64,000 nt of DNA from Candidatus Schekmanbacteria bacterium. GTDB taxonomy: Bacteria; SZUA-182. This document shows, in pieces, positions 4,433 to 51,707 of the stretch. Positions within the stretch are counted from its first letter, which is position 1. Each line of letters starts with the position of its first letter. The stretch is taken from contig JACRJN010000131.1 of NCBI GenBank assembly GCA_016235675.1, positions 1,779 through 65,778 of the forward strand, written 5' to 3'. A program made the position numbers and the translations under genes. Below the pieces are notes generated by a model. It saw only the letters and a program-made list of their open reading frames with translations, made no database searches and was not told the DNA's origin.

Positions 4433-4643
4433 CGACGAAGCAGACGCCCTTTATCTAAAATTGGGAGAAGAAACGCCGGAAGGGGTAATAGAGCTAGCCG
4501 AAGGGGTTAATCTGGACACCACTGCTGAAGATAAGATAGTAGGGATAGAAATTTTGAATGCCTCCAAGAAGATTGATTTAAAAACAATATTATCTTATAC
4601 CCTGGAGTTTGAAAAGGATTTAATAACCCAAGAAGCGGCCTGA
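4416..4643 (+). CDS. DUF2283 domain protein (antitoxin-like partner of DUF4258)
   Basis: 75 aa, MKVYYDDEADALYLKL...IVGIEIL typical of DUF2283. Overlaps the upstream gene. Confidence 0.55.
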   Translation: MKVYYDDEADALYLKLGEETPEGVIELAEGVNLDTTAEDKIVGIEILNASKKIDLKTILSYTLEFEKDLITQEAA

Positions 4644-6816: not shown

Positions 6817-6921
6817 GGCTTGAGTAATGAGATTTGAGGTAAAATCACAGGCAGGATGCCTGTGCTACCGTAGGGCGAATTTGTATTCGCCCTCTTTCCC
6901 TCAAGCCTCAAGTCTCAAGCC
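6796..6921. repeat. composite element between convergent atpB and the PHP gene
   Basis: (GGCTTGAGG)n and (CCTCAAGCC)n outer arms enclose a family-D half REP (CACAGGCAGGATGCCTGTGCTACC) and a GTAGGGCGAATTTGTATTCGCCCTC hairpin. Confidence 0.8.
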
Positions 6922-7571
6922 TTTTTATTACAGCGATGAACCAAATTTCGGGCATTAACCCAAATTTGCTCTATCTGGGACTCGGTCAGCCCTGCGCCGA
7001 TGGCTACTTTAATGGCTTGTTCCTGCGAAATGAGGTCATCCGGTTCATGAGAGTCGGTATCAAGTATTAAAGAAGCATCTGATTTTGCGGCCAACTTGGC
7101 CACATGGCCGTTTGTCAGGGAATGTCCCTTACGGCTGGTAATTTCCAGAAAAATATGACGCTTTGCCGCCAAACGGACGTCTTCTTCGCTGATCAAACCC
7201 GGATGCGCCAATATATCGATGTCGGATTTTAAGGCATAATGATTGGTGCCAGGAACAACCGGCTCGGCTATGGTTTCCCCATGGACAACGATAATTTTAG
7301 CGCCCAGGGAGCGGGCACGGTACGCCAGATCGGGGATGAGCTTAGGCGGAACATGCGTTAATTCTATGCCGGGGATAGCGGTTATTTCCCAATGCTGATT
7401 AGCGGTTTGACAGGCTTGAATAATACGCGGGATTACAAATTCCAGGTTGGACGGATCGGCATGATCGGTCAAAGCGATGGCTTTATAGCCTTTAACGACG
7501 GCGTGGCGTATCAATTCCATCGGAAGGAGAACGCCGTCACTGAACAAAGAATGGGTATGAAAATCAAACAT
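6915..7571 (-). CDS. PHP-domain metal-dependent phosphoesterase
   Basis: 218 aa with an MFDFHTHSLFSDG N-terminal His motif and later conserved His/Asp positions of the PHP family. Confidence 0.7.
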   Translation of the reverse strand: MFDFHTHSLFSDGVLLPMELIRHAVVKGYKAIALTDHADPSNLEFVIPRIIQACQTANQHWEITAIPGIELTHVPPKLIPDLAYRARSLGAKIIVVHGETIAEPVVPGTNHYALKSDIDILAHPGLISEEDVRLAAKRHIFLEITSRKGHSLTNGHVAKLAAKSDASLILDTDSHEPDDLISQEQAIKVAIGAGLTESQIEQIWVNARNLVHRCNKKA

Positions 7572-19261: not shown

Positions 19262-20287
19262 ATGGCATATCACTTCAGAAATCTGGTTTTCGAGGGCGGC
19301 GGCGTTAAAGGAATAGCTTATGTGGGGGCAATGAAGGTTTTGGAGAGCAAGGGAATTCTGCCGGACATCGTCAGGGTCGGCGGAGCATCGGCAGGGGCGA
19401 TCAATGCCCTGCTTGCCGGTCTGAATTATACACCGACTGAGGTAAAGCAAATCCTGGGCGATCTTGATTTCAAAAATTTCATGGATGATGATTTCGGGGT
19501 GGTGCGCGATACCGATCGTTTGATCTCCGAATTCGGCTGGTACAAGGGCGATTTCTTCCGCAATTGGGCAGCCCGGCTGATCCGGGACAAGACCGGTGAC
19601 AGCGAATCGACTTTTGACAAGGTAGCATCATTAAAGGAGAGCCGAAGGTTTAAGGATATTTATTTTATGGGCGCCAATTTATCGACTGGTTTTTCGGAGG
19701 TGTTTTCCGCTGAGCATACCCCCAAAAAGCGTGTGGCCGACGCTCTGCGGATTTCCATGTCTATCCCCTTGTTTTTCAAGGCTGTTCGGAGTGACAGAGG
19801 CGATGTCTATGTGGACGGCGGGTTGTTGGACAATTATCCGGTAAAGCTTTTCGACCGCCAGAAATATATCGACCAATTCTCGCTCAACACCGATTACTAT
19901 GACGAACACAACAAGCAATTAAAGGCTCAGGGCAGGCAAATAAGCCCTTACGTTTATAATAAAGAGACCTTGGGTTTTCGCCTGGATACCGCCAAGGAAA
20001 TTGCGATATTTCGGAATCAGGCCGAACCGGAGCATAAGAAAATTAAAGATTTTTTCGATTACGCCTGGGGGTTGGTGGATACCATTATGGAAAGCCAGCA
20101 GAGCCAGCATTTGCATGGCGATGATTGGCAACGCAGCGTTTATATCGATAGCCTGGGGGTCAAGACCACCGACTTTAATCTCAGCGACAAGAAAAAGGCA
20201 GAATTGGAAGATTCCGGGAGGAAAGGGGCGGAGATTTATTTTAAGTGGTATGATGATCCGGACAGTACTCCGGTGAATCGCCCGTAA
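19262..20287 (+). CDS. patatin-like phospholipase
   Basis: GGGVKG oxyanion motif and a GASAG serine-lipase motif. The start is placed at MAYHF, downstream of a REP element, rather than at the ORF-table start 19109. Confidence 0.8.
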   Translation: MAYHFRNLVFEGGGVKGIAYVGAMKVLESKGILPDIVRVGGASAGAINALLAGLNYTPTEVKQILGDLDFKNFMDDDFGVVRDTDRLISEFGWYKGDFFRNWAARLIRDKTGDSESTFDKVASLKESRRFKDIYFMGANLSTGFSEVFSAEHTPKKRVADALRISMSIPLFFKAVRSDRGDVYVDGGLLDNYPVKLFDRQKYIDQFSLNTDYYDEHNKQLKAQGRQISPYVYNKETLGFRLDTAKEIAIFRNQAEPEHKKIKDFFDYAWGLVDTIMESQQSQHLHGDDWQRSVYIDSLGVKTTDFNLSDKKKAELEDSGRKGAEIYFKWYDDPDSTPVNRP

Positions 20288-23859: not shown

Positions 23860-25086
23860 TCACCTGGGACTTAAAGCCATAAGCGCATAGGCCGCATTCA
23901 TGAACGCCCCTGGCATATATGTCTTGTCCGCTATTTGAAGTATGGTACCGCTTTTATCCCAACGGGCAAAACCGGACAGATTATAAATCTCCATCCCATC
24001 TGTTCCGCTGCCGTCGACACGTGCAGCCATCGAAGTATAGTTAGGCGCGCCCACGGCAAAAACCACATCCCGAAAGGTGGCGGCGTATTTTTCCATATCC
24101 TTATCCGGATAATAATCTCCGAATTTTTCCAGAGACATTTCCATCACCATAGTCATGAAATACTCGGCATAATTAATCTTTTGATAACCCTCGTCGTTTC
24201 CCCAGACGTTATGTTTCCAGACAAAAGCCTGCGGTTTGGCAGTATTGGTTTGGACATGCTTTACCAACATATCGGTATAATAGTTGGCTTTTTGTAAATA
24301 TATCTCCTTCCCGGTCATTTTATATAAATAATAGGCGATGCGCGCCAAATTGGAAATCGGATGGGTGAAACGTTTTTCAATCCCGCTCCAGGCCTCGGAA
24401 AGACTCCCTTTTCTCACAGCCCATTTGCCCATAAAATGATTCTGCAAATAATTCAGCCAAAAATCAGCCTGTTGCTGATATTTCGGATTTAAGTGCTTGT
24501 TCAGGTAAAAGGCATAGGTAATCGCCGCTACCCCGCCGTGTGTCATGGCCTCATCCATCGGGTCTTCATCGGTGCAGAAGTAAGGGTAATTGACGTTATA
24601 ACCGCTTTTGGGATAGAATTCCAGTTGCAGCCAGTCTAAAAACCCATCCGTACTGCCGTTGCATTTATCGGCGCCCGGCATGGCGTTGTCCGGCAATCGC
24701 CATTCGTCTTTAAGCAGCGCACGCGCCATATCCATTATCGCCGCCGCTTCATCTAAAAATTTCAAATCCCCGGTCGCCCGCAAGGCCATCATCAGCGCGC
24801 TGACATACTCATTGACCACCCGCATCCGGTAAAGACTGCCGCTTTTGGCATTGTATTCGATATATGATTTTCTATCCGCTATCGATTCCCAAAGGCGGTT
24901 ATACCAAACCCGCATTTGGGGGGATAATTCGTCGGGATTGAATTTGGGATTGCCGTATAAAGGCACAGAGATGACTGTAGCGCTGACCACTTCTTTATTG
25001 GAACTAACCTTGGCTTGCGCCATATTATTGAAGATTAAGATAAAAGTTATAATGTTAAAGAATAATCTTTTTGTCCATGGTTTCAT
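23860..25086 (-). CDS. secreted hypothetical protein at the edge of the polysaccharide locus
   Basis: The start is placed at MKPWTKRLFF (signal peptide) rather than upstream inside a REP element. It is largely alpha-helical, and a polysaccharide lyase or hydrolase role is only a guess. Confidence 0.45.
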   Translation of the reverse strand: MKPWTKRLFFNIITFILIFNNMAQAKVSSNKEVVSATVISVPLYGNPKFNPDELSPQMRVWYNRLWESIADRKSYIEYNAKSGSLYRMRVVNEYVSALMMALRATGDLKFLDEAAAIMDMARALLKDEWRLPDNAMPGADKCNGSTDGFLDWLQLEFYPKSGYNVNYPYFCTDEDPMDEAMTHGGVAAITYAFYLNKHLNPKYQQQADFWLNYLQNHFMGKWAVRKGSLSEAWSGIEKRFTHPISNLARIAYYLYKMTGKEIYLQKANYYTDMLVKHVQTNTAKPQAFVWKHNVWGNDEGYQKINYAEYFMTMVMEMSLEKFGDYYPDKDMEKYAATFRDVVFAVGAPNYTSMAARVDGSGTDGMEIYNLSGFARWDKSGTILQIADKTYMPGAFMNAAYALMALSPR

Positions 25087-25181
25087 AATGCCCCCTTTTA
25101 AAGACTGTGCCGCAATGTAGTTACCTGATTTATCAGGTACGACCCGTGGTACCCGATAAATCGGGTAACTACAATTACCCA

Positions 25182-26936
25182 TCACCCTTTTCTCCAAATA
25201 GCATAATCATTGATGACTAATAAATCAAGCTTTGATTTTAATAAAACGTCAACAGCCTGATCGCTGTTTTCCACAATGGGGTGACCGTGCAAATTAAATG
25301 AGGTATTCAGCACACAGGGAATCCCGGTCTTTTGGTAAAAGCCCTCGACAATCTGATAGAAATCCGGATAGCGCTCTTTGGTCACCGTCTCAGCACGGGC
25401 GGTAAAATCGGACTGATGCAGGGCGCAGGCGATACTCTCCCTTTGGTCTTCCACGGTTTCGAAGGCAAACATCATATACGGCGATCCTTGAGATTTTAAA
25501 GCGTTGGGAATCCTGATCAATTGCCCGGCTTTGTCCCATAACATCGCCGGAGCAAAGGGCATCCAGAAATCCCGGTTCTTTATCGCCCGGTTGATTTTGC
25601 CCACCACATTTAAATTGGAAGGGTTAGCCAGAATGGATCGATTTCCCAGCGCTCTTGCGCCGAATTCCATCGGCCCGGAACAGCGCGCCACAATCTTGCC
25701 GGCAACCAATTGCCCGACAATGTAAGCGTTGATGTCCTTGATTCGCTCGTATTCGATCTGCCCCCGGTATTTTTCTAAAACCGCGGGCAAATCCCCGCCG
25801 ATAACAGACCCCAGGCAATAGGATTTTAAATTGTCCACCTTTTTTTCTATATGGGTGTTGTACAGATAAAACCCGGCGCCGAACACATTGGATTCATCCC
25901 CGCAGGAAGGGAAAACATCGATGTATTCCACCTCCGGCATCTGAGACAAAAGCATATTGGTCTTGACGTTCATAAAAACACCGCCGCTGCACAGAATTTT
26001 CCCGACCCCGTATTTTTTGATCGCCCCCCGAATCCAGGCGCCGAGAATCTCCTCGGTAAAGGCTTGCAGACCGGCAGCCACATTATCAAAACGCGCCCTT
26101 TTCAAATCATTTAACAAATGGCGCATGAAAATTTCATGATATAACAATTTGGAATTTTCAAAGCGGGTATCGTCGTCGGCCAGTTTGAGAAACTGGCTGA
26201 AATACTTTTTATATTTGTCTTGATGTTTTTTGTCAACATAAGGAGCCAAACCCATTAATTTATATTCATGTTCGTGAGGGGTAAAACCCAGATGATGGGT
26301 CACCGCCGAATACATATTCCCGATCGAATAGCAAGGAGAGCTTGACAACAACTGCAAGTTTCCGCCCTGCCCCAGATACAGCGCGCTGGTATAGCGATCC
26401 CCGCCGCCGTCTAAGGTAAACACCAGGTACTTTTCATCCAGATGCCTGGCCAGTCCGTAATAAGCCGCCGAGGCATGGCACAAATGGTGCTCGACGCGCT
26501 CGATTCTGTCCGGCCTAAACCCCAGGTGCGCCAAATAATCCAAATCTTTTTCTTTGCCGCGGTTAATTTGCTGACGCGAGCGCAGATAGACCCCGAACAG
26601 GAAATCGCTGGACTTGATATTTTTTCTTAGCTCATTGCGTACTCTGGTGATATTGATCGGATTGCCGCAAGCCCGCCGATAATGCCGCTCATAGTTATTG
26701 TAAAAGGTGGTGCGGTTCAGCTCCCGATAAATGGCGTTAGCAATACCGACATATTCCACCTCAGATGGCCGGACGATTCCGTTTTTGATGATATAATCCA
26801 GCGCTTTATAGGGGAAGCCCATCCAGTTTTTGGTTCTAATCAGACGCTCCTCTTCCATACAAAACACCGGTTTGCCGTTCTGAAAAACCCCCAGCGAACT
26901 GCCTAACCCCGAATTTATGGTCACTATTGTGCTCAT
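25182..26936 (-). CDS. carbamoyltransferase (NodU/CmcH family)
   Basis: About 585 aa with an N-terminal Kae1/YgjD-like ASKHA fold (TIVTINSGLGSS...CMEEERL) and a C-terminal carbamoyltransferase domain. ATG at 26936 with a GGAGAAGG RBS. Confidence 0.85.
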   Translation of the reverse strand: MSTIVTINSGLGSSLGVFQNGKPVFCMEEERLIRTKNWMGFPYKALDYIIKNGIVRPSEVEYVGIANAIYRELNRTTFYNNYERHYRRACGNPINITRVRNELRKNIKSSDFLFGVYLRSRQQINRGKEKDLDYLAHLGFRPDRIERVEHHLCHASAAYYGLARHLDEKYLVFTLDGGGDRYTSALYLGQGGNLQLLSSSPCYSIGNMYSAVTHHLGFTPHEHEYKLMGLAPYVDKKHQDKYKKYFSQFLKLADDDTRFENSKLLYHEIFMRHLLNDLKRARFDNVAAGLQAFTEEILGAWIRGAIKKYGVGKILCSGGVFMNVKTNMLLSQMPEVEYIDVFPSCGDESNVFGAGFYLYNTHIEKKVDNLKSYCLGSVIGGDLPAVLEKYRGQIEYERIKDINAYIVGQLVAGKIVARCSGPMEFGARALGNRSILANPSNLNVVGKINRAIKNRDFWMPFAPAMLWDKAGQLIRIPNALKSQGSPYMMFAFETVEDQRESIACALHQSDFTARAETVTKERYPDFYQIVEGFYQKTGIPCVLNTSFNLHGHPIVENSDQAVDVLLKSKLDLLVINDYAIWRKG

Positions 26937-28244: not shown

Positions 28245-28428
28245 GCTTCTAGCCTGTGATATCATTTTCTGGTTGTCATTCCCGAATGACTTTATCGGGA
28301 ATCCAGTTCTAAAGTTCTAATTGCTTGAAAAGCCATATCCCCGATAAAGACATTCGGGGATGACAGAGTGCCTTCTCAACCAGAAAATGATATGACCTGT
28401 GATGCACAGGCTAGAAGCCTGTGCTACC
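28245..28428. repeat. triple-nested palindrome: family-D outer, ATATCATTTTCTGGTTG middle, family-N inner
   Basis: GGTAGCACAGGCTTCTAGCCTGTG...CACAGGCTAGAAGCCTGTGCTACC with a 130-nt interior that is itself two nested inverted repeats. Confidence 0.8.
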
Positions 28429-29062
28429 ATACCACCCTGGCAGGGTTGCCGAATACCGTGGTATTCTCTGCCACATCCTTTAAAACCACCGCTCCGATTC
28501 CAACTTTTGACCAGCGGCCTATAATACGACCGGGAATAATCGCGGCGTTGGCTCCGATGTCGGCGCCTTCCAGAATTTTCACCCGCCCGGTAATATTCGC
28601 TCCGGGAGCGATGGTGCAATAGTCCTCCAACAGGCAATCGTGCCCGATTGTGGCATTCAGGTTGATCGTGATATGATCGCGTATATCGGTTTCACCGGCA
28701 ATGACTACGCCCGCTCCGATAATCACCCCTTTGCCCAATTTTACGCTGGGAGCGATTGTGGCCGCCGGATGCACCGCGTTGATATAATCAATATTGCCGG
28801 CCAATCTTTGTTTGATTTGCTTTTTGACTTCAGGATTGGCGATGGCCAGGATGCAGCTATAAGCTTCCGTTGTCTGATTCAGCCGGTCAATTTTGCCCAA
28901 AACCAGGATTTGGTTGATGATCAGCCCCTGTTTATCGGCCGCGTCATCCACAAACCCCGCCAGTGTAAATTGCGGGTTTAGTTCATTTTGCGCCCGCAAA
29001 ATCTCCCAAACCCCGCGGCCGTGATCCCCTGCGCCGATGATAATTATTTTTTTCATGTGCAT
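28424..29062 (-). CDS. sugar N-acetyltransferase of the PglD/NeuD/WbbJ hexapeptide-repeat family
   Basis: N-terminal Rossmann-like IIGAGDHG segment followed by a left-handed beta-helix of hexapeptide repeats. The start is placed at MHMKK, and the TAG stop comes from the adjacent REP head. Confidence 0.75.
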   Translation of the reverse strand: MHMKKIIIIGAGDHGRGVWEILRAQNELNPQFTLAGFVDDAADKQGLIINQILVLGKIDRLNQTTEAYSCILAIANPEVKKQIKQRLAGNIDYINAVHPAATIAPSVKLGKGVIIGAGVVIAGETDIRDHITINLNATIGHDCLLEDYCTIAPGANITGRVKILEGADIGANAAIIPGRIIGRWSKVGIGAVVLKDVAENTTVFGNPARVVW

Positions 29063-29068
29063 TATCCT

Positions 29069-29247
29069 GTAGGGTGGACACACAGAACGGTAGCACAGGC
29101 ATCTTGCCTGTGATGTGGGCAACGCCCACACAAAAACGGTGCAATGACTGGAAGTTGTTGGGTAAATCGAAAGCTTCCATTCTATGCCGCAACACACAGG
29201 CTGGAAGCCTGTGCTACCCTACCCAATGGTGGGCACAGCCCACCCTA
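29069..29247. repeat. C/D mosaic REP cluster between the acetyltransferase and sugar-transferase genes
   Basis: GTAGGGTGGACAC...GGTAGCACAGGCATCTTGCCTGTG...CACAGGCTGGAAGCCTGTGCTACC...GGTGGGCACAGCCCACCCTAC. Confidence 0.8.
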
Positions 29248-29850
29248 CTTTTTCCAATAATCCGCCTTGGCCAGATCCTCTTCTCTTGATATTAAAGCCG
29301 GAAAAGTCAGCAGCAATATCTTGCAATCCAGAAGAAAGGACAGGTGGCGGATATATTCTATATCGTATTCGATTCTTTTATCCCAATCAATGGATTTCCG
29401 TCCGCTGACCTGAGCCAGACCGCTAATTCCCGGCCTTATAAGCAGCCTTTGCCTTTGATGGGGCGTATATTGATCCACCTGATATTTTAACGTCGGACGC
29501 GGCCCGATGATGCTCATATCGCCGCGCAAGATATTGATCCCCTGGGGCAATTCATCCAACCCGCTGACGCGCAACCATTGGCCGATGCGGGTCACCCTGG
29601 GGTCGTTTTTCTCCACCAGTATCCCCGCTCCCATTTTGGCGGCATTGGGCAGCATGGTGCGGAATTTGTATAAATCAAATAACTTGCCGTCTTTGCCTAC
29701 CCGCTCCTGGCTGAAAAATACCGTCCCTTTAGAATCCAATTTTATCAGCAGGGCGATGATTAGCATGGGAATAAGCATCAGCGACAAAATGACCAGGATG
29801 AAAATTATGTCTAACGCCCGCTTAAAATATTTGGAATAAAGCCCGTTCAT
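29245..29850 (-). CDS. undecaprenyl-phosphate sugar phosphotransferase (PglC/WbaP C-terminal family)
   Basis: One N-terminal TM helix plus the conserved KFRTM...IGPRP...DELPQ blocks of bacterial sugar transferases. Confidence 0.85.
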   Translation of the reverse strand: MNGLYSKYFKRALDIIFILVILSLMLIPMLIIALLIKLDSKGTVFFSQERVGKDGKLFDLYKFRTMLPNAAKMGAGILVEKNDPRVTRIGQWLRVSGLDELPQGINILRGDMSIIGPRPTLKYQVDQYTPHQRQRLLIRPGISGLAQVSGRKSIDWDKRIEYDIEYIRHLSFLLDCKILLLTFPALISREEDLAKADYWKK

Positions 29851-29870
29851 TATTTTCCATTTCCATCTTT

Positions 29871-33185: not shown

Positions 33186-33288
33186 GTTTTGAAATTCTGT
33201 CATTGCGAGGCAGCCTTATCGCCGAAGCAATCTCAGACATACGAGATTGCTTCACTCCTTCGTCGTTCGCAATGACAATTCTGAAATT

Positions 33289-34467
33289 TTAACCAATTTG
33301 CCCCTTCACCTGTACCCTGTTCTCATAAATCCGCTCAATCGCCTCACAAACCTTGATTACCTTCTCTTCCGGCAAGTGGGTAAACAAGGGCAGGCAGCAA
33401 ATCCTTTTACAAACCCAGGCGGTGGCCGGTAATTGATCCTGATATTGCTGATAATAATCTTTATAGGCGTCCTGCTCATGCACCGGGGGATAAAAATATT
33501 TTCTGGTCATGATATTTTCCGGCTTCAGGGCGGCAGATAGTTGATCGTTATTCAGACCGAATATCTCTTCATCCACCAAAACAGAGAAATAATTGTAAGA
33601 TGTGCGGGCATTGGCCTCAATCTTTTGAAAGCTTATCCCCGGCAATTTCTGCAACCTGGATTTATATAAATCTACCAGTTTATACCTGGTATTAATGCTT
33701 TCCTCTAATTTTGTCAGGCATTTACCGGCCAATAAAGCGTGCATCTCGCTCATACGGGCGTTTAAGCCGATAAACCGGGTGTTGTAGTTTCCCGGATTGC
33801 CGTAATCCCTGGCGATCTTCAGATCGGCAGCCAGTTGATCGTTATTGGTGGCGACGATCCCCCCCTCGCCGGCCACTACCAATTTGGTAGGCGCCAGGCT
33901 GAAGACCTCCGCATCTGCGAAATTCCCGGCAAATTTGCCGTGATATTTTACACCCAAAGCATGTGCCGCATCGGAAATCATTTTGAGATGATGTTTGGCG
34001 GCGATGGAGGTTAAACGATCCAGTTGCGGCGGGTTGCCGAAGATATAAACCAGCATAATGGCGCAGGTCTGCGGCGTGATTTTCTTCTCTACCTCATGCG
34101 GATCGATATTAAAGGTCTCCGGGTCGCAATCCACAAAGACCGGCTTTAAATTATTCCACAGCAGGGCATGAACCGTCGCCGGAAAGGTAAAGCTGGGGAC
34201 AATTACTTCCCCCTTCAAACCCAATAATTTCAAGCTCAACAACAAACCGGAAGTGCAACAGGAAACGGCTACCGCGTTTTTTACCTCAAGATAATCGGCG
34301 CATTCATTTTCAAAGCGTTTGACATAGCGCGCATTGGTCAGCATCCCGGAATTAAATATATCCGTTAATTCAGCGGTCAAGTCATCAACCTTCGGCAAAG
34401 TCGGCTGATTAATCGGTAATAATTGGTCGAAAGCGGGGCTGCCCCCTAAAATAGCCGGTTTTTTCAT
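33289..34467 (-). CDS. DegT/DnrJ/EryC1/StrS family PLP-dependent sugar aminotransferase
   Basis: 392 aa with conserved blocks (SCCTSGL, FSLAPTKLV with the Lys for PLP). Confidence 0.9.
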   Translation of the reverse strand: MKKPAILGGSPAFDQLLPINQPTLPKVDDLTAELTDIFNSGMLTNARYVKRFENECADYLEVKNAVAVSCCTSGLLLSLKLLGLKGEVIVPSFTFPATVHALLWNNLKPVFVDCDPETFNIDPHEVEKKITPQTCAIMLVYIFGNPPQLDRLTSIAAKHHLKMISDAAHALGVKYHGKFAGNFADAEVFSLAPTKLVVAGEGGIVATNNDQLAADLKIARDYGNPGNYNTRFIGLNARMSEMHALLAGKCLTKLEESINTRYKLVDLYKSRLQKLPGISFQKIEANARTSYNYFSVLVDEEIFGLNNDQLSAALKPENIMTRKYFYPPVHEQDAYKDYYQQYQDQLPATAWVCKRICCLPLFTHLPEEKVIKVCEAIERIYENRVQVKGQIG

Positions 34468-34639
34468 TATAATTTGTCCCTTCTTGTAAATAAATTGGTA
34501 GCGTTTTCAACAGAAGACCAGTAGCGTCATTGCGAGCGGAGCGAAGCAATCTCCATGCGTGCGTAGAGATTGCTTCGCTTAAGCTCGCAATGACATTTTT
34601 CAGCCGAAAGAAAATTATCCCTCAAGCCTCAAGCCTAGT

Positions 34640-35851
34640 TTATGCCGTAATCAATTCGGCTAATTGAGCCACATTCTTTCTAATATCAAAAGATTCGCAA
34701 ACCCTTTGCCGCCCGGCTTTTCCTAACCTTTGGCGCAAATCCGGGTCGTGATATAGTTTTTTAATCGCCTCCTTCAAGGCCAAAACATCTGCGGGAGGAA
34801 CGATTAGCCCGGTTTCCATATTATGCACCAATTCGGGAATAGCGGAAATATCGGTTGAGATTACCGGCACTTCCAATGCCAGCGCTTCGATAAATACGTT
34901 GGGAAGGCCATCCTGCCGGTTACCGTTGAGTGTAACGCAAGGCAGGACAAAGACATCAGCCGACTTCATCTTTTCAATTACCTGAGGATGAGGCAAATGA
35001 TTGCTGATTTTCACCCGGTCACCTAATTGATATTTTCGGTGCAAGGCGATTATTTCCTCTTTGGCCGGGCCGTTTCCGCCGATAATCTCCGCACTAAATT
35101 CCATCCCTTCTTTTTTCAGCAGATGAAGCGCTTCGATTAAATATTTGAACCCCTTCTTTTCCACCATCCGCCCAACCGCCAGGATATTGAATTTCCCGTT
35201 GCTTCTACTCCCAAGAGGCTGATAATGATTGGGGTTCAATCCATGATAATTTACCTTAATTTTATCGGCAAAGCCGTTTTCACATAAAGTAATTAAATAT
35301 TTCTGATTAAATTGTGTACAGGTAACCATACATTTGGCTTTTTTAATCTTCTGCCGCAACCCATATGTATCTACAAAAATATCCCAGGCATGACCGGTAA
35401 AGGAAAATCCCAACCCTAAAAGCCGGGCGATTATCATGGCGCTTGCCGTAGAAGTCGTCGCCCAATGGGCATGGATATAGCGAATATTTTGTTCCTCGAT
35501 AAGTTTAGCGTAATAAACAGATTTTGGGAAGATAGCCAACGCCCTAAGGATAAAAGCTAACTCGTTAGAATTGGTAAAAAGTTCTTTTAAGACGGCTAGA
35601 TATTGCTTGGGTTTTTTCGCAAGATAATAAATATGCGCCCATAAAATCTTTAAGGATAACAGGTAGGGGCTGTAATAAACCGGCCTTTTCAGTTGATTTA
35701 ATAACGGATAATTTTTCTCCAAATCAGCCAGTTTTTTCCCCAAGGCAAATATATGTAAATCAATTCCCTGATTGGCTAATTCCAGCATCTCCCGCAGAAT
35801 AAATTCCGATCCCAGAGATGTGTTGATATAAGCTATCTTTTGTTTTGCCAT
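34640..35851 (-). CDS. glycosyltransferase family 4
   Basis: 403 aa with a GT-B fold and a C-terminal EALALEVPVISTD block. Confidence 0.8.
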   Translation of the reverse strand: MAKQKIAYINTSLGSEFILREMLELANQGIDLHIFALGKKLADLEKNYPLLNQLKRPVYYSPYLLSLKILWAHIYYLAKKPKQYLAVLKELFTNSNELAFILRALAIFPKSVYYAKLIEEQNIRYIHAHWATTSTASAMIIARLLGLGFSFTGHAWDIFVDTYGLRQKIKKAKCMVTCTQFNQKYLITLCENGFADKIKVNYHGLNPNHYQPLGSRSNGKFNILAVGRMVEKKGFKYLIEALHLLKKEGMEFSAEIIGGNGPAKEEIIALHRKYQLGDRVKISNHLPHPQVIEKMKSADVFVLPCVTLNGNRQDGLPNVFIEALALEVPVISTDISAIPELVHNMETGLIVPPADVLALKEAIKKLYHDPDLRQRLGKAGRQRVCESFDIRKNVAQLAELITA

Positions 35852-37412
35852 CTAACTTCCTTCTTTGGTAGCACAGGCTGGAAGCACATGACACAGGCTG
35901 GAAGCCTGTGTTACCGGATGCAGGGCTGAAGCCCTGCGCTACACTTTTTTGCCTCCCGGTTAAAAGCCTCCCTTTAGCTTTAACAGTAATTCCGGCCATG
36001 ATCCAAAAATAAGCCGTTAATTCATTGGAAAAAAAGCGCGCTCCCGATAAATCCAATAAAAACAGGGCGATGACACAACCCAGTAGCCCGCCGGCCAGCG
36101 CCTTAATGTAGGGATCGTCCGTCTGGCGCATTACCTGCCGGGCACTAAAAAAAACAGCCGCCAAAATCCATAAATACAAAATTAACCCGACGATTCCTTC
36201 CTCGACTGCAATCCAAATAAACGAACTATGAGCCGCTTTGGGAAACGGAAGCACCCCACATCTGACCACCACTTCCTGGAATGTTTCAAAACCCGTACCC
36301 AAGATGGGGGCTTCGGCCATCATCCGCGGCAATCCTTTCCACTGGCGTAGCCTCAATTCTGTGGAATTATCGTATTGCTGATTTTCATATTTTCCCTGCA
36401 CCCCTTCTTCCAGAAAGGTATCGTCTACCCGTTCTTCTACCGCCGGCGGCGGATGCACCAAGATCACAACTAAAGCCAACAACATAAATAAAAGCAGGCG
36501 CTTATCTTTAACCAGTCCCAGGAACAAAAGACTGGCCAAACAGGCCAGCCAGGAACCGCGGGATAAGGTGGTAAACAAGGCCAGAAAACATAAACCGGTA
36601 CCCGCTAAAAGCAGGTAATGCCGTTTGGAGGGCAGTTTCAGATATAAAGAGCAAATAAATAGCGGGGTATACATAGCCAGAAAGCCGCCATATAAATTAG
36701 GCTGATCCCCGATTACCCCGCCTCCGTTTCTGTTCCGCTCGATATAATCCGCTATTCGAAAAAAATCTTTTAACGAAAGTATTACGATAATTCCGATCGT
36801 TACTAAAAGAAAAATCAACAAACGGCGGCTATAATGCAAATCGTAAGATTTTAAGGTGATGAAATATAAAGAAACATAAATAAGCCAATTTTTAGCGACA
36901 CTTAAGCGTTCAACATCCGAACAATACGCGGAAGGCATCCTGAAAATGGATAATAAAGTAAAAAATACAAGCAGATAAACAGGTATTTTTAACGGATCGC
37001 ATCTCGAATTTTCTTGCGGCTGCTTTTGGGAAAACACGCCAAGAAATAAAATGGCCACAATAATAGTTTGGGCGTTTATTCCGGTTATGCCGAAAAAATC
37101 AGGGGGAAAGAGGTCTAAAATCGGCATAAAAAAGATAAAAAAACAAACCGCTAAATCGATTCTTACAAAGGCCAAATAAGTCCAAAAAATACCCAGGGAA
37201 AACCCTAAGAAAATCTTTACCGGATAATAAGGCAAAAATATCGCGCAAATTACCGCCGCCACAAGAACCGATAAACTTGTTTTTTCAAACCGATCAACCG
37301 AAGAGACATCAGATTTGCCGGATGTTTCGGTTGGATTTAAATAATTTAATTGATACACAGGTGAAGTGTCCACAACTTTCCTCAGTGCTATGAAATACGA
37401 CAAAACTCCCAT
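35760..37412 (-). CDS. O-antigen ligase/Wzy-like polymerase family membrane protein
   Basis: Polytopic membrane protein with the Wzy_C-like segment LFTTLSRGSWLA. The C-terminus reads through a REP element into the next gene's 5' end, so the listed stop is probably not the ancestral one. Confidence 0.6.
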   Translation of the reverse strand: MGVLSYFIALRKVVDTSPVYQLNYLNPTETSGKSDVSSVDRFEKTSLSVLVAAVICAIFLPYYPVKIFLGFSLGIFWTYLAFVRIDLAVCFFIFFMPILDLFPPDFFGITGINAQTIIVAILFLGVFSQKQPQENSRCDPLKIPVYLLVFFTLLSIFRMPSAYCSDVERLSVAKNWLIYVSLYFITLKSYDLHYSRRLLIFLLVTIGIIVILSLKDFFRIADYIERNRNGGGVIGDQPNLYGGFLAMYTPLFICSLYLKLPSKRHYLLLAGTGLCFLALFTTLSRGSWLACLASLLFLGLVKDKRLLLFMLLALVVILVHPPPAVEERVDDTFLEEGVQGKYENQQYDNSTELRLRQWKGLPRMMAEAPILGTGFETFQEVVVRCGVLPFPKAAHSSFIWIAVEEGIVGLILYLWILAAVFFSARQVMRQTDDPYIKALAGGLLGCVIALFLLDLSGARFFSNELTAYFWIMAGITVKAKGRLLTGRQKSVAQGFSPASGNTGFQPVSCASSLCYQRRKLDGKTKDSLYQHISGIGIYSAGDAGISQSGN

Positions 37413-38842
37413 AACCGGTACAAGCGCGCCTTTTCCTGGGCGGCAAAAAAACCGCTCAGCCAAAGTAATACGGGAAACAAAAGAATTAACATGCACTTAT
37501 AAGCGATAGCCACGCTTATTGCTTCAATATTAATCAGTACCCCCGCCAAATATAAAGCTAAGCTAATCGCTATTAATTTGATGATACGACCAAATTCATA
37601 TCTGACAGGATAAAGCTTCATCGAAAGAACGACTATCATAATAAATTGAAAAATATAGGCCAGCAACGTCGCATAAGCCGCCCCCATCATCCCAAAAGAT
37701 GGGATCCAAAGAAAATTCAATCCGACATTCAACAGCGCAGCAATTCCTACAGCCGTGCTGAAATATGAAGTTTTACTCTTCAAATATACACCGACCGCCA
37801 CTACATTGAACAGCCCGTAAAATAACTGGGATAGGGCAATGATCGGAATCACCCGGTAAGCCTCTAAAAATTTAGGCGTGGTGGCTAAAATAATAATTTC
37901 CCTGGCCAATATCGATAAGGACAGGCAGACAAAGGACATTATCGCAAAAAAATAAGTGCTGGTTTTGGAATATAACTCGTTGGCATTTGGCGATTTTTCG
38001 TTGGAAAACACAAATTGCGGCCAGGCCAGTTGAAAAGCCCAGGCCAGAAACCACAGAATTTCCCCGAATCTATAGCCTAATGAATAGATACCCACTTGAT
38101 CCAGCGTACTATACATTTTTAACATGTATCTGTCCGACAGGGTTAAGATTATCCCGCCGATGCCGGAGAAGATTAAGGGAACGCCGAACCGCAGCAGACT
38201 TTTTGCTTCGGTTAAAGAAAACCGAAAAGGCACATCCCTTAAAATCCAGGGGATAAGAATGAGGCAAACTAACAAACCGGCCAGGCATTGACTGATTAAA
38301 ATCCCCCAGAACCCTTTTTTAAATGCCACTACTAAAAAAATAGTCAATAACAAGGTAAAACCGGTATCGGATAAAGTCAGTACGGCATATTTCTTCGATT
38401 CGCCTTGCGCCCGCAGGCAGGAAAAAGGGATTTTGGCCAATTGGGAAAAAACACCGGTTAAAGACACGATGATCACGGCATTGGCATAAACCGGGCTTCC
38501 CAGCAACAATCTGGAAATCCCGGCTGAATTAACAATAATAATGCCCATCACCGGCAGAGAAATCAGCAGCATTATAAATCCGGAGGTGCTTAAAACCAGG
38601 TTTTTCCCCTCCGGTGTCTCGGCCTTAAAATAATTTTTAAATATGGCGCTGCTCATCCCCAGGTTTAAAAATATAAACAAAAAGGAGCCGAACAGGGAAC
38701 ATAAAGACAAGATTCCATAATCCGCGGGCGTCAGATAACGGGTATAAAGCGGAATCAGCAAAAATCCCACTATTTTCCCGGCGGTATTTCCTAAAACATA
38801 GAAAATACTATCGGAAAATAATTTTTTAATTTTGGAAAACAT
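37388..38842 (-). CDS. oligosaccharide flippase (Wzx/polysaccharide biosynthesis protein family)
   Basis: 484 aa with 12-14 predicted TM segments and a MOP-superfamily pattern. Confidence 0.8.
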   Translation of the reverse strand: MFSKIKKLFSDSIFYVLGNTAGKIVGFLLIPLYTRYLTPADYGILSLCSLFGSFLFIFLNLGMSSAIFKNYFKAETPEGKNLVLSTSGFIMLLISLPVMGIIIVNSAGISRLLLGSPVYANAVIIVSLTGVFSQLAKIPFSCLRAQGESKKYAVLTLSDTGFTLLLTIFLVVAFKKGFWGILISQCLAGLLVCLILIPWILRDVPFRFSLTEAKSLLRFGVPLIFSGIGGIILTLSDRYMLKMYSTLDQVGIYSLGYRFGEILWFLAWAFQLAWPQFVFSNEKSPNANELYSKTSTYFFAIMSFVCLSLSILAREIIILATTPKFLEAYRVIPIIALSQLFYGLFNVVAVGVYLKSKTSYFSTAVGIAALLNVGLNFLWIPSFGMMGAAYATLLAYIFQFIMIVVLSMKLYPVRYEFGRIIKLIAISLALYLAGVLINIEAISVAIAYKCMLILLFPVLLWLSGFFAAQEKARLYRLWEFCRIS

Positions 38843-46564: not shown

Positions 46565-48328
46565 TTGAAAAATTTCCTGCGCCTGAAAAAATACTTCTAC
46601 CAATACCGCAAGTCGATCTTGGCCGGGGTTATGTGTTTAGTCCTGACTAATCTGGTGAGTTTAACCGCTCCCTGGGTCTTGAAAACCGCCATCGATCAGT
46701 TGCGCCAGTCCCTTACCCATAAGCGTCTGTTCTATTATGCCGCCCTGATTTTGGGAATCAGCATCGTACAGGGAATTTTCCGCTATCTTACCCGCCAGAT
46801 ATTAATCGGCGCCTCCCGCCACATTGAATACCATTTCCGCAACGATATTACACTCCATTTGCAGAAATTGCCCTGGAGCTTTTTTATCAAACACAAGACC
46901 GGCGACATTCTCGCCCGCACCACTGAAGATTTGAATGCGGTACGCATGGCGATTGGCCCCGGCATCATGCACTTTTCCCATACTATTGTGTTGTTCTTCG
47001 TGGTGGCCGGATTGTTGTTCTACATCAATCCGGTCCTGGCTTTCTGGGCCTTGCTGCCGCTACCGGTTTTTTCCCTCTACATCAAAAAGAATACCAAGCG
47101 GGTTTATCAGTCCTTCATGTCGGTGCAGCAAAAACTGTCCGCCCTGACCTCCCATGTGCAGGAAAATTTCTCCGGCATCCGCATCATCCAGGCTTATCAG
47201 CGGGAAGAAGCATCCATCGAAACCTTTCAAAAGCTGGGGAGGGAATACATCCAGGGCAATATGGAACTGGCGCGTTACTGGGGGCTGCTGCTGCCGCTGA
47301 TGATGTTAATTTACGGTCTGGGGCAGATAATCGTACTTATGCTGGGAGGCCGTCAGATTATCCTGGGCCAATTGAGCTTAGGCGAGTTCGTCGCTTTCAA
47401 CGCCTATCTGGCCATGCTGCTTTTCCCGATGATGGCTTTAGGCTGGGTAATGAATCTCTTCCAGCGGGGAGCGGCGGCCATGGAGCGCATCTCGTTGATT
47501 CTGGATGAACCGGAACAAGAAAACCGGGGGCAATTATCGGAAACCCCCGCAAAAGGAGAAATAGAATTCCGCCACTTACATTTTTCCTACGAAACGCAAA
47601 ACAAAAAATGGGCATTGAAAAACATCAATCTGAAAATCCCCGCAGGAACGACATTAGGCATTGTCGGAGCGGTGGGAGCGGGCAAGACCACTTTAGTTAA
47701 TTTACTCCCCCGCTTACTGGAAATCAGTCAGGGGCAGATTTTAATCGACAACCAGGAGATTAGAAACATTCCCTTAAAGGCATTGCGCAGCCTGATTGGA
47801 TATGTCCCTCAGGAAGGCTTCCTCTTTTCCGCCTCCATCAAGGAAAACATCCTCTACGGCTTCGAATGCTTAATTGACAAATGCAACGAGGAAGAAAAAA
47901 TTATTGAGGCTGCGCAAATCTCCCAGATATGGGAGGAAATCCACACCTTACCGGAGCGTTTCGAAACAAAACTGGGGGAACGCGGAATCACCCTGTCCGG
48001 CGGCCAGCGTCAGCGCACGGCTTTGGCCCGCGCCCTGATTCGCGACCCTAAGATATTGATACTGGATGACTCCTTTGCCAGTGTCGATACCTATACGGAA
48101 AGGAAAATCCTGCAACACCTCAAACCATTTATGGCAGGCCGCACCTGTCTGATTATTTCGCACCGCATATCAACGGTGATGGACGCCGACCGGATAATTG
48201 TCCTGGATGAGGGGGAAATCGTTCAGCAGGGGCGGCATGAGGATTTAATCCGGAACCCGGATGGTTTTTACGCCAAAACCTATGCCAAACAATTATTATT
48301 GGATGAGATTACCAGGGGAAACAAATGA
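46565..48328 (+). CDS. ABC exporter fused permease/ATPase subunit
   Basis: Six-TM domain plus an NBD with Walker A (GAVGAGKTT), signature (LSGGQRQR) and Walker B motifs. TTG start. Confidence 0.9.
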   Translation: MKNFLRLKKYFYQYRKSILAGVMCLVLTNLVSLTAPWVLKTAIDQLRQSLTHKRLFYYAALILGISIVQGIFRYLTRQILIGASRHIEYHFRNDITLHLQKLPWSFFIKHKTGDILARTTEDLNAVRMAIGPGIMHFSHTIVLFFVVAGLLFYINPVLAFWALLPLPVFSLYIKKNTKRVYQSFMSVQQKLSALTSHVQENFSGIRIIQAYQREEASIETFQKLGREYIQGNMELARYWGLLLPLMMLIYGLGQIIVLMLGGRQIILGQLSLGEFVAFNAYLAMLLFPMMALGWVMNLFQRGAAAMERISLILDEPEQENRGQLSETPAKGEIEFRHLHFSYETQNKKWALKNINLKIPAGTTLGIVGAVGAGKTTLVNLLPRLLEISQGQILIDNQEIRNIPLKALRSLIGYVPQEGFLFSASIKENILYGFECLIDKCNEEEKIIEAAQISQIWEEIHTLPERFETKLGERGITLSGGQRQRTALARALIRDPKILILDDSFASVDTYTERKILQHLKPFMAGRTCLIISHRISTVMDADRIIVLDEGEIVQQGRHEDLIRNPDGFYAKTYAKQLLLDEITRGNK

Positions 48329-50094
48329 GCACTGATTATTACCAGGGGGCGGACGGTGATAAGGCTTACGACAGCTATCTGATGAAGCGGCTGTTGACCT
48401 ATTTGCGCTCCTATAAATTACTGGTGGCCTCCGCTTTGGGCTTGCTGTTGCTGGTTTCCGTCCTGGGACTTTCCGGGCCGTATCTTATCAAGATCGCTAT
48501 CGACCGGCATATCCACAATAAAGATATGGCGGGGCTGACCGTTATCGCCGCGGTCTATTTTCTGGTAATGTTTCTGGAATTTATCCTGCGTTACTGGCAA
48601 ATCTATCTGATGCAGCTTACCGGCCAGAAGGTCATGTTTGATTTGCGCCGGCAACTTTTCTCCCATCTTGCGCGGATGCAGGTCGGATTCTTCACCGAGC
48701 AGACCATCGGAGGCTTAATCAGCCGCCTGATCAGCGACATCGAGGTTTTAAACGAAATGTTTTCCGCAGGCTTAGTCGCGGTATTCGGGGATATTGCCAT
48801 GCTGCTGGGGATCATGTTTATGCTGCTGTATATGAACTGGAGGCTGGCCTTGGTGGTCTTTACCGTGATTCCTTTGATATTTTACGTCACTTACCTGTTT
48901 CGCCAAAAGGTACGGGTGTCCTTTCGCGCCATCCGTCAGCATACCGCCCGCATCAGCGCCTTTATGCAGGAAAACCTCACCGGCATGTCGATTATTCAGG
49001 TTTTCAACCGCCAGGAAAAGAATTTTAAGCAATTCGACCGCCTGAATAACGACTACCTGGAGGCTTACAAGCAAACCATCTTCTATTACGCCATGTTCTT
49101 TCCGGTGGTCGAATTCCTGGGCGCGCTTTCCATCGCCCTGATGCTTTGGTACGGCGGGATGCAGGTAATCCAAAAGCTGATCACCTTCGGGGTGCTGGTG
49201 GCTTTCATCGAATATAATCAGCGCTTCTTCCGCCCGATCGATGACTTGATGGAAAAGTACAATATCTTTCAATCCGCCATGGCCGCAGCGGAACGCATTT
49301 TCAAACTTCTGGATACCCCGGCAACCATCCGCGACGCGCCTAATTCCACCCCCTGGCCGGGATTACGACAGGAGATAAGCTTTCAAAATCTCTCCTTTGC
49401 CTATAACGGGGAGGATTTTATTTTGAAGGACATTAATCTGCGGATAAAAAAGGGAGAAAAATTAGCGGTTGTCGGTCTCACCGGTTCGGGAAAAACCACT
49501 TTGGTCGGGCTTTTGCACCGTTTTTATGAGGCACAATCCGGCCGGGTGCTTTTGGATGGAATCGACATCCGGAATATCTCTCTCCATGATTTACGCCAAC
49601 ACACCGCCGTCATTTTGCAGGAGCCTTTTATTTTTTCCGGCAGCGTTTGTGATAATATCCGCTTAGGGCGCACCGATATACCGATGGACAAAATAATCTG
49701 GGCGGCGCATCAGGCCAACGCCCATGACTTTATTCAGCAGTTTGCCGACGGGTACCGGCATGAGTTGAAAGAACGGGGAGCCGATTTATCCGCCGGACAA
49801 AAACAATTGCTCACCTTTGCCCGCGCCTTAGTCTTCGATCCGCAGATATTGATCCTCGACGAAGCCACCTCCAATATCGACTCTCAGACCGAGGGCTTGA
49901 TCCAGGATGCCCTGGATAAGATTTTGCAGGATCGCACCTGCATCGTAATCGCCCACCGCCTGGCCACCATCCAGAAAATGGAACGCATTATCGTAATGGA
50001 CAAGGGACAAATCAAGGAAGAAGGCAATCATCAGCAGTTATTGCAGCAGAACGGGCTATACGCCAAATTGTACCGCTTGCAGTTTACGGTTTGA
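48325..50094 (+). CDS. ABC exporter fused permease/ATPase subunit (heterodimer partner)
   Basis: Same architecture (GLTGSGKTT, LSAGQKQL). Overlaps the upstream gene by 4 nt. Confidence 0.9.
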   Translation: MSTDYYQGADGDKAYDSYLMKRLLTYLRSYKLLVASALGLLLLVSVLGLSGPYLIKIAIDRHIHNKDMAGLTVIAAVYFLVMFLEFILRYWQIYLMQLTGQKVMFDLRRQLFSHLARMQVGFFTEQTIGGLISRLISDIEVLNEMFSAGLVAVFGDIAMLLGIMFMLLYMNWRLALVVFTVIPLIFYVTYLFRQKVRVSFRAIRQHTARISAFMQENLTGMSIIQVFNRQEKNFKQFDRLNNDYLEAYKQTIFYYAMFFPVVEFLGALSIALMLWYGGMQVIQKLITFGVLVAFIEYNQRFFRPIDDLMEKYNIFQSAMAAAERIFKLLDTPATIRDAPNSTPWPGLRQEISFQNLSFAYNGEDFILKDINLRIKKGEKLAVVGLTGSGKTTLVGLLHRFYEAQSGRVLLDGIDIRNISLHDLRQHTAVILQEPFIFSGSVCDNIRLGRTDIPMDKIIWAAHQANAHDFIQQFADGYRHELKERGADLSAGQKQLLTFARALVFDPQILILDEATSNIDSQTEGLIQDALDKILQDRTCIVIAHRLATIQKMERIIVMDKGQIKEEGNHQQLLQQNGLYAKLYRLQFTV

Positions 50095-51684: not shown

Positions 51685-51707
51685 TGGTAATTTCATCTGG
51701 GAGCGAC

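Follow-up and report, generated by a model that had tools for sequence, protein, structure and literature searches.

Several genes along a 64,000-nucleotide stretch of DNA (the window), taken from a 65.9-kb contig of a very repeat-rich Candidatus Schekmanbacteria MAG, draw their stop codons and in some cases their last residues from short repeats. We consider it probable (roughly 0.75) that GTAG-headed REP doublets, similar to REPINs and BIMEs, have spread together with arrays of heptamers in this compact genome, and that the surviving copies are those which soon reach a stop codon or add tails that the proteins tolerate. The initial annotation had proposed that such elements insert directly at the ends of genes or into those ends, reshaping C-termini, and every comparison made here fits that proposal, from the junctions around fmt to the ends of fmt, Wzy-like and V-type ATPase subunit B homologs. 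The predicted tails of these three proteins are absent from homologs, and 12 residues of the fmt ORF are REP-coded. The placement right at termini may reflect which insertions survived and not targeting.

A hairpin scan identified 64 GTAG-headed hairpins in the 64 kb, approximately 55 of them members of recurring families (at least six), with the GC-rich stems (5-9 bp) and short loops (3-7 nt) of REP palindromes. The GTAG stands at the 5' foot in every family (A, A2, B1, B2, D, E, F and G), with one copy in the cluster of the Wzy-like gene having a degenerate GTAA head, and inverted doublets (GTAG...CTAC pairs) occur at nearly all REP sites. At approximately one unit per 1.2 kb, the density is very high. 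REPs occupy 19 tandem and 2 convergent junctions and neither of the 2 divergent ones, a small sample, and tandem gaps have a median of 207 nt where REPs are present versus 40 nt where they are not, several REP-free gene pairs overlapping outright. The GTAG head lies within 15 nt of the stop codon, on it or upstream of it in 11 of approximately 51 genes; seven genes have a head 3-14 nt past the stop, so that the hairpin starts no more than 15 nt after it, besides four overlapping cases, two of which share the TAG. The statistics of this proximity are weak, because short spacers partly force REPs near stops. The families also differ in the frames that they close, with stops in six of six frames of the B doublet, one of six of the D unit and two of the three forward frames of the A unit.

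The 3' end of fmt lies within one of these doublets:

60522..61490, plus strand: fmt (methionyl-tRNA formyltransferase), in which codons 311-322 (RSPSPLGLNLQG) and the TAA are REP sequence
61453..61504, plus strand: B-type REP doublet (GTAGTCCCAGCCC...GGGCTAAAGCCCTGGCACTAC)

The doublet's second hairpin carries the TAA stop in its loop, and the doublet consensus contains a stop within 12 codons in all six frames. That fmt ends in REP-coded codons and a REP-coded stop, as first proposed, was confirmed, although the codons number 12 rather than approximately 15, INKEF being native and not REP-coded. Homologs of fmt end 1-4 residues past the point where the REP sequence starts. In three of three relatives (fmt 60-64% identical) the junction between fmt and the same downstream flavoprotein gene is free of REPs, the two genes overlapping by 4 nt (L006) or 1 nt (L002) or standing 28 nt apart (L005); in the window the REP doublet lies between them, with a gap of 65 nt in addition to the 12 REP codons. 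A GAATTC present on both sides of the inserted segment was considered as a target-site duplication and rejected, as excision between the two copies gives, by reasoning from the sequence, no plausible fmt end. No match to further copies of this lineage-specific B doublet was detected in metagenome contigs.

A longer tail is predicted for the Wzy-like gene, which runs into a REP cluster and beyond it:

35760..37496, minus strand: Wzy_C (O-antigen ligase/polymerase-like) ORF with a Pfam Wzy_C match
35867..35942, minus strand: REP cluster of 76 nt read through by the Wzy ORF
35920-35942: A-type REP in the cluster
35892-35916: D-type REP with the degenerate GTAA head
35867-35889: degenerate inverted D-type REP ending in CTACC
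35760..35851, minus strand: stretch of 92 nt shared, in different frames, by the Wzy ORF and the 5' end of the glycosyltransferase gene
34640..35851, minus strand: group-1 glycosyltransferase gene, ATG at 35851-35849

From 35942 down to 35867, the cluster reads GTAGCGCAGGGCTTCAGCCCTGC-ATCC-GGTAACACAGGCTTCCAGCCTGTG-TCATGT-GCTTCCAGCCTGTGCTACC, and RNA spanning 35840-35965 folds at -45.3 kcal/mol (z -3.0). The ORF, for which the NCBI call is 35760..37373 (537 aa), had been described as running through a D+A element and about 90 nt into the next gene, and it does so over 76 nt of cluster (35867-35942) and 92 nt of glycosyltransferase gene, to a TGA at 35760-35762. The approximately 62 codons of this predicted tail comprise the REP cluster and the out-of-frame 5' end of the next gene and, as the conservation of the extension had been singled out for checking, it is of note that no homolog compared has an equivalent. 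The Shine-Dalgarno sequence of the glycosyltransferase (GAAGGAAG) lies directly 3' of the cluster, and an out-of-frame TAG (35852-35854) abuts its ATG. In-silico removal of the 76 nt yields a 522-aa Wzy protein ending ...QKSKEGS at that TAG, a reconstruction that depends on the element boundaries chosen and had a 1-in-3 chance of fitting by frame alone. The frame of the predicted extension rests on one A6 run. Programmed frameshifting at CAAAAAAG was discounted from the sequence, as this run falls outside the X XXY YYZ register when read in the Wzy frame. JGI metagenome contigs contained no exact match to a 34-mer taken from the Wzy 3' end. In a relative (L003/L004) a Wzy gene overlaps the downstream glycosyltransferase gene by 14 nt; this junction was rejected as an orthologous empty site because the glycosyltransferase there differs in N-terminus and length, and it therefore illustrates tight gene packing only.

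Two further genes stop at the TAG of a GTAG head, precisely as had been reported for them:

28424..29056, minus strand: PglD-like hexapeptide acetyltransferase, true start at M48 of the listed ORF
29245..29866, minus strand: PglC-like sugar phosphotransferase, its TAG stop being the head of an E-type REP

The TAG of the acetyltransferase (28424-28426) and the GG of its last Trp codon together form the GGTAG head of a D-type REP at 28405-28427 (GGTAGCACAGGC...), and the TAG of the sugar phosphotransferase (29245-29247) belongs to the GTAG head of an E-type REP at 29228-29248 (GTAGGGTGGGC...). The acetyltransferase sits at the short extreme of its family, with homologs a median of 5 residues longer (n = 113) and 11 of the 113 ending as early. 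Gene starts are affected too: the listed acetyltransferase ORF carries 47 spurious N-terminal codons, and the sugar phosphotransferase probably starts at the ATG at 29866 or 29860, since the listed start at 29889 falls inside a REP.

The D-type REP also occurs in other genomes. Of its copies there, 89 follow an ORF of 150 codons or more; in 21 of these the ORF terminates on the head TAG, in one it stops 2-60 nt further in and in 20 it continues more than 60 nt past the head. We take this count as no more than supportive, since both the TAG class and the read-through class are inflated by long spurious ORFs in high-GC genomes. In an unrelated MAG, from Phycisphaerae, D-type REPs have a RAYT-like ORF approximately 1 kb away. 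Within the window, a scan of all frames for the HUH...Y-x3-NP motif found no RAYT gene (a Y1/HUH transposase gene, usually flanked by its cognate REPs), its sole match being a false one within a glycosyltransferase, so RAYT mobilisation of the elements is assumed here by analogy. It is conceivable, but in our view very doubtful, that the D-type REP (GTAGCACAGGC-N5-GCCTGTG) represents a REP/RAYT system extending across Planctomycetota, Verrucomicrobiota, Acidobacteriota, Cyanobacteria and this MAG, its copies preferentially located, through integration or selection, right on the stop codons of upstream genes and acting as a mobile, stop-codon-coupled 3'-end module that tunes termination and mRNA fate.

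Heptamer arrays rather than REPs supply the ends of a convergent gene pair:

5416..6816, plus strand: gene for V-type ATPase subunit B, its predicted product extended at the C-terminus by 8 residues (ELGLRLEA)
6796..6824, plus strand: tandem array of the heptamer GGCTTGA (x4, one unit GGCCTGA), not a GTAG REP
6846..6891, both strands: tail-to-head REP pair between two inverted heptamer arrays, D-type on the minus strand and a GTAGGGCGAAT hairpin on the plus strand
6898..6921, minus strand: inverse heptamer array with the TGA (6915-6917) of the PHP-domain gene
6915..7571, convergent: PHP-domain gene

Subunit B ends ...KYMPAGK+ELGLRLEA, and its last six residues (GLRLEA) and TGA stop lie in the array; solved V-ATPase B subunits end exactly at the start of the heptamer-coded tail. 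The gene listed as atpB does end in a repeat, as the initial annotation held, but it encodes the V-type subunit B and the repeat is a heptamer array, not a REP. The companion claim, that the convergent PHP gene stops in an inverse copy of the repeat, was upheld by the position of its TGA. The motif GGCTTGAGG occurs 6 times versus 0.5 expected, with arrays of 3-4 units at 6796, 6898 and 34620, so that this tandem 7-nt unit recurs at several loci in the manner of STRRs. Besides GGCTTGA, the window has heptamers of the families CTTCGTG, CGAGATA and GACAATN.

One doublet lies in the interior of a conserved gene:

16891..16946, minus strand: A-type REP doublet in frame inside leuS (16335..18923), coding for 19 residues

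This doublet forms the centre of a 38-residue insertion that is missing in 40 homologs and in solved LeuRS, and it keeps the reading frame, as RPEs do. It is the sole such intragenic case in the 64 kb and adds to the examples noted earlier.

The direction of events would be insertion, with ancestral states inferred across large distances because no close relative exists (the nearest are 64% identical in fmt, 50% in Wzy and 58% in leuS). Operon genes otherwise overlap or nearly touch, and an element landing in such a junction would find no neutral spacer, so that the upstream gene would lose its final codons or its stop and its frame would enter the repeat. Selective filtering could then let copies persist only where the harm is small. 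An in-frame head TAG would halt the protein at once (the acetyltransferase and sugar transferase), a TAA or TAG in a loop would halt it within approximately 12 codons (fmt with its B-type doublet), and elsewhere the tail would be a tolerated, non-conserved appendage (V-ATPase B and Wzy). The Wzy gene would have met the cluster in an unlucky frame, one that finds no stop in the A and D units and that is moved by the 76 nt of the cluster (1 mod 3) past the TAG abutting the next ATG, with the consequence that translation would end 92 nt into the next gene. The stops and tails would thus be by-products and not designed features.

Selected regulatory placement, which is compatible with this reading of filtered insertion but which we think unlikely as the explanation, would have a REP within approximately 15 nt of a stop stall the terminating ribosome and reduce the output of the upstream gene, with mRNA cleavage and tmRNA tagging of its product, or would have it shield the upstream mRNA from 3' exonucleases, and would, with the same low likelihood, make the overlaps the extreme of a functional arrangement instead of accidents. 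It would account for the 11 of approximately 51 genes with a head near, on or upstream of the stop, for the stable folding of clusters as RNA (z ~ -3) and for the location of REPs inside operons on the transcribed strand and in no divergent junction, and in E. coli, according to the summary of Liang et al. [quoted passage not shown] However, positions and families vary by junction with no common architecture, relatives have the same junctions without a REP, and ribosomes translating through the hairpins of Wzy, fmt and leuS would unfold them. The hairpins were also rejected as terminators: none is followed by a T-run on the coding strand, as an intrinsic (Rho-independent) terminator would be, and terminator-like sites are not enriched between 27000 and 38000 (17 found versus 14.8 expected). 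For the Wzy gene specifically, the tail might be an artefact of an extra A in the A6 run before the GTAG head or of a mis-assembled cluster, the real stop being the head TAG or one immediately ahead of the glycosyltransferase start codon. With five As the frame reads ...GRQKV and then the head TAG, as in two neighbouring genes, the first D unit of the cluster is degenerate, and REP clusters break short-read assemblies: the only other contig found to carry the neighbouring gene (L001, from Logan) begins inside the cluster and stops short of the A-run. We nonetheless regard this as quite improbable, as short-read assemblies seldom get a homopolymer of six bases wrong, the NCBI annotation accepted the 537-aa protein, and L001 repeats the degenerate part of the cluster exactly, though it may derive from the same reads. 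Published indel-dependent extensions into a repeat have, moreover, been real strain differences (Coxiella enhC, PMC5896051).

Targeting of stop codons, whereby the element integrates just 3' of an existing (G)TAG in the manner of IS200/IS605 relatives, which insert beside a fixed tetranucleotide, and the REP borrows the stop, TAG codons being its natural targets, appears very unlikely. In its favour, RAYTs belong to the HUH/Y1 transposase group and GTAG is essential for RAYT activity, and the cross-genome peak falls exactly at the head TAG, with 21 of 89 ORFs there against one stopping 2-60 nt further in. Yet D-type REPs in the window have a GGTAG head, and in the copy that shares its stop both Gs are retained within the Trp codon, which argues that the head arrived with the element; in addition, 90% of the homologs are longer than the acetyltransferase, as truncation predicts. 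Most heads are not at TAG stops, seven sitting 3-14 nt after TAA or TGA, and in fmt, Wzy and leuS the element has inserted within the coding sequence.

For annotation, ORF ends or starts that fall in repeats of REP-dense MAGs produce wrong protein termini, as with the 62-residue Wzy tail and the 47 acetyltransferase codons, and REP clusters break assemblies as well. For evolution, selfish palindromic repeats can invade a genome nearly without spacer DNA, the outcome being that non-conserved tails are trimmed or extended, overlapping or abutting genes are separated and a loop of an essential synthetase is entered. Current understanding is unchanged by this; the same behaviour is on record for the GTAG REPs, for the MITEs of Coxiella and for the RPEs of Rickettsia.

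Like the GTAG REPs, BIMEs and REPINs described previously (Di Nocera et al. 2013, PMC3733652; Nunvar et al. 2010, PMC2817692), the elements of the window are hairpins of 20-25 nt, rich in GC and headed by a 5' GTAG; a single genome carries several families, the units form inverted doublets, and they sit between unidirectional or convergent genes, close to where the upstream ORF ends. A Haemophilus REP listed by Nunvar et al. (PMC2817692) is matched by the E-type stem of the window (GTAGGGTGGGC...GCCCACC). GTAG REP termini often supply TAG stops, REPs also turn up within ORFs, those of tRNA synthetases among them, and N-terminal REP overlaps are often annotation artefacts (PMC3733652). Unlike those systems, the host phylum is missing from the carriers listed in PMC3733652, the density is very high, the window has no RAYT gene and one cluster is read through for 62 codons into the next gene. 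As in the E. coli stop-proximal REPs of Liang et al. 2015, to the extent that PMC12306157 describes them, hairpins lie within 15 nt of the stop (seven genes and four overlaps here), whereas in three window cases the ORF passes through the hairpin. In Coxiella burnetii, functional genes affected by QMITEs all have the element at the 3' end, with overlaps of 1-50 bp; enhC of strain Dugway gains 33 C-terminal residues from a QMITE, and an indel in another strain places the stop just before the element (PMC5896051), a close parallel to Wzy and its A6 run. QMITEs are larger MITEs with terminal inverted repeats and not GTAG hairpins, and the Coxiella extension stays out of the following gene.

The leuS doublet resembles the RPEs of Rickettsia and the intragenic REPs of Opitutus terrae, within what PMC3733652 relates of them, in that a palindromic repeat adds an in-frame segment to an essential gene. 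It differs from RPEs in belonging to another element family, in being a single case in 64 kb and in that the insertion is a predicted one. Cyanobacterial STRR heptamers are tandem 7-nt units in intergenic DNA, with several families per genome. The heptamers of the window resemble them by this general description only; the host is not a cyanobacterium, and unlike STRRs the arrays stand as inverted copies on either side of REP pairs, with one array supplying a stop and six residues. Overall, the phenomenon is one already described, and the window adds a new lineage in which this known behaviour occurs.

The window has a GC content of 47%. A search of it for GTAG with a GC-rich stem-loop behind it gave 64 GTAG-headed hairpins, of which ~55 were assignable to at least six recurring families, nearly always as inverted GTAG...CTAC doublets. 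REPs occupied 19 tandem and two convergent junctions and neither of the two divergent ones, and the median tandem gap was 207 nt with REPs versus 40 nt without, several REP-free pairs overlapping. Such traits define GTAG-tagged REPs, BIMEs and REPINs. An HUH/Y motif scan of the window found no cognate REP-associated transposase (RAYT). Intrinsic terminators were rejected as an identity for the hairpins: the coding strand has no T-run after them, and there was no enrichment of terminator-like sites.

The window's Wzy-like and fmt proteins were 100% identical to NCBI proteins of a 65,938-nt contig from a 'Candidatus Schekmanbacteria bacterium' MAG. The Wzy-like ORF lies in a long minus-strand polysaccharide-synthesis operon encoding Wzy_C, group-1 glycosyltransferases, a DegT aminotransferase, a PglC-like sugar transferase, a PglD-like acetyltransferase, an AMP-ligase, a carbamoyltransferase and a flippase. 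The initial annotation, which had the Wzy-like ORF running through a D+A element and ~90 nt into the next gene, was borne out. Beyond its final conserved segment (...FWIMAGITVKAKGRLLTGRQKS), the ORF (35760..37496, minus strand) traverses 76 nt of clustered GTAG hairpins, one of A type and two of D type (35942 to 35867). It then crosses the next glycosyltransferase gene's Shine-Dalgarno sequence and its ATG (35851), and terminates 92 nt into that gene in a different frame. In homologs (identity 50% and 47%) the protein extends 17-25 residues beyond the last transmembrane segment, the tail being found only in the MAG's own protein, and one relative's Wzy gene overlaps a glycosyltransferase gene downstream of it by 14 nt. 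The Wzy frame is the sole frame open across A, D and inverted D. Removing the cluster in silico gave a 522-aa protein ending ...QKSKEGS at a TAG touching the glycosyltransferase ATG (TAGATG) and, because 76 is 1 mod 3, insertion would have moved the frame past this TAG. An ancestral 522-aa Wzy is only plausible, given a 1-in-3 prior by frame alone and dependence on the element boundaries chosen. Alternatively, were the A6 run before the head A5, Wzy would end at the head TAG; the long read-through into the next gene still needs read-level confirmation.

The fmt ORF (60522..61490) terminates at the loop TAA in the second hairpin of a B-type doublet. Its last codons and stop are thus REP sequence, as initially annotated, but the REP-coded residues number 12 and not ~15. 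Its homologs, both the four nearest (60-64% identity) and those further away, terminate 1-4 residues beyond the ...LINKEF position and hold no counterpart of these 12 residues. Alignment of C-termini against orthologs, the check originally proposed, found both fmt and Wzy homologs without the tail. At the junction of fmt with the downstream flavoprotein gene, contigs of three relatives showed overlaps of 4 nt (L006) and 1 nt (L002, TAGTG) and a gap of 28 nt (L005), with no REP at the junction in any of the three, whereas in the window a REP doublet fills a 65-nt gap. This best available REP-free comparison supports insertion.

Sequence at both stops confirmed that the acetyltransferase (28424) and sugar transferase (29245) end on the TAG of GTAG heads (GGTAGCACAGGC... 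and GTAGGGTGGGC..., respectively). The acetyltransferase terminus is ...GNPARVVW, the GGTAG head contributing GG to the final Trp codon; 113 single-domain homologs continue a median of 5 residues further and only 11 of them end as early, which fits a protein slightly truncated by the REP. The sugar transferase C-terminus is of ordinary length. Both ORFs, and two others, as mechanically listed, start within REPs:

29057-29197, start of the acetyltransferase ORF
29867-29889, start of the sugar transferase ORF
25117-25197, start of ORF 23860..25197
19109-19248, start of ORF 19109..20287

The simplest reading is that these ORFs were called too long: the true acetyltransferase start is M48 (29056), and the other three are likely extended too far 5' in the same way.

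The gene labelled 'atpB' encodes V-type ATPase subunit B. Its final six residues and TGA stop fall within tandem GGCTTGA heptamers, and an inverted heptamer array holds the stop of the convergent PHP-domain gene, so that both genes do end in a repeat and its inverse copy; the REP label given to this repeat was the initial annotation's one labelling error. Enterococcus hirae V-ATPase B ends ...KYLPEGK, exactly where the window's ELGLRLEA extension starts. Heptamer arrays often adjoin REPs, some being inverted around a REP pair, and are reminiscent of cyanobacterial STRRs. A third abundant family, GTCATTGCGAG...CGAAGCAATCTC...GAGATTGCTTCG...CTCGCAATGAC, forms hairpins of ~60-80 nt without a GTAG head, several of them 4-12 nt past stop codons (e.g. 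after 48325..50094 and 33289..34467). Subunit A (2361..4112) and B (5416..6816) genes lie 1.3 kb apart, and the small genes between them look like REP-bracketed cassettes inserted within the operon. A small RVT_3 (RNase H-like) gene (7574-7942) lies 2 nt directly upstream of the PHP-domain gene.

6796-6824, 6898-6921, 34620-34635, GGCTTGA arrays
12061-12090, 31674-31703, 51658-51687, 53946-53975, CTTCGTG/CACGAAG arrays
9227-9279, 20296-20348, CGAGATA arrays
about 41063-41095, 55321-55340, 61509-61520, GACAATN arrays
8076-8168, 9101-9183, 33199-33243, 34510-34598, 40986-41068, 50098-50180, 60190-60269, GTAG-less long hairpins
4119-4165, 4651-4742, 5329-5386, REP doublets bracketing the accessory genes
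4416..4643, DUF2283 gene; 4772..5323, Uma2-family endonuclease gene; also an unassigned 102-aa ORF

The essential gene leuS (16335..18923, minus strand) carries an in-frame A-type doublet (16891-16946) coding 19 residues, centred in an insertion of 38 residues within an anticodon-binding-domain loop; the insertion is absent from all 40 nearest homologs (54-58% identity) and from solved LeuRS structures. Separately, ORF 14625..15962 (445 aa) contains a 120-nt direct repeat at 14854-15453 (at least four copies, 63-71% identity), suggesting that its protein has repeats of 40 residues.

Among GTDB genomes, at least 118 contig stretches carried the exact D-type core (GTAGCACAGGC-N5-GCCTGTG) and, among the matches listed, its hosts included Planctomycetota, Verrucomicrobiota, Acidobacteriota, Cyanobacteria and other groups, with two or more copies within 8 kb in 56 of 118 loci. 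One REP sequence across phyla suggests either shared RAYT-recognition constraints or horizontal spread. In a Phycisphaerae MAG (L031), a 198-aa RAYT-like ORF (5346-5942; motifs HLH...YIHLNPV) lies ~1 kb from a D-type group (five matches at up to 3 mismatches, 0.01 expected), and a different repeated sequence occupies the region just upstream of this ORF. Of the listed D-type copies, 89 followed an ORF of 150 codons or more; the head TAG was the stop of 21 of these ORFs, a single ORF stopped 2-60 nt further in and 20 extended >60 nt beyond the head, a count that agrees with the window and is confounded by spurious long ORFs in high-GC genomes.

REP-free junctions in the window operon and relatives overlap or nearly do, so an element landing there must come between the upstream gene and its final codons or stop, and reading frame would then set the outcome. 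The B doublet meets every one of the six frames with a stop inside 12 codons, hence the short fmt tail. Of the three forward frames the A unit closes two, and the D unit closes only one frame in six. Homolog termini and the REP-free fmt junctions of relatives support the original claim that elements insert at or into gene termini and reshape C-termini. The pattern is attributed mainly to selective filtering of insertions. Integration beside pre-existing TAGs may contribute, and so may a regulatory role of hairpins near stops, the GTAG head lying 3-14 nt past the stop in seven genes beyond the four overlapping ones.

REPs at gene ends have already been described. GTAG termini are stated to supply the TAG stop often, and REPs to be present within ORFs; around 10% lie at ORF ends, N-terminal cases frequently being mis-annotations (Di Nocera et al., PMC3733652). 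E. coli REPs <16 nt from a stop lower translation, as summarised in PMC12306157. New here are the host lineage, a very high density of REPs and the particularly long read-through into the next gene. The E-type REP, GTAGGGTGGGCTGYGCCCACC, is found at four sites:

29228-29248, E-type REP
4119-4165, E-type REP
4651-4742, E-type REP
11952-12024, E-type REP

Its head and stem are the same as those of the Haemophilus influenzae REP GTAGGGTGGGCTTYAGCCCACC, and the REP of relative L006 (GTAGGTTGGGTTG...) resembles the Coxiella REP tabulated in the same study (Nunvar et al. 2010, PMC2817692). In Coxiella, the overlap of QMITEs with 3' ends measures 1-50 bp, and in enhC one strain takes 33 C-terminal residues from a QMITE, while an indel in another restores an upstream stop (PMC5896051).
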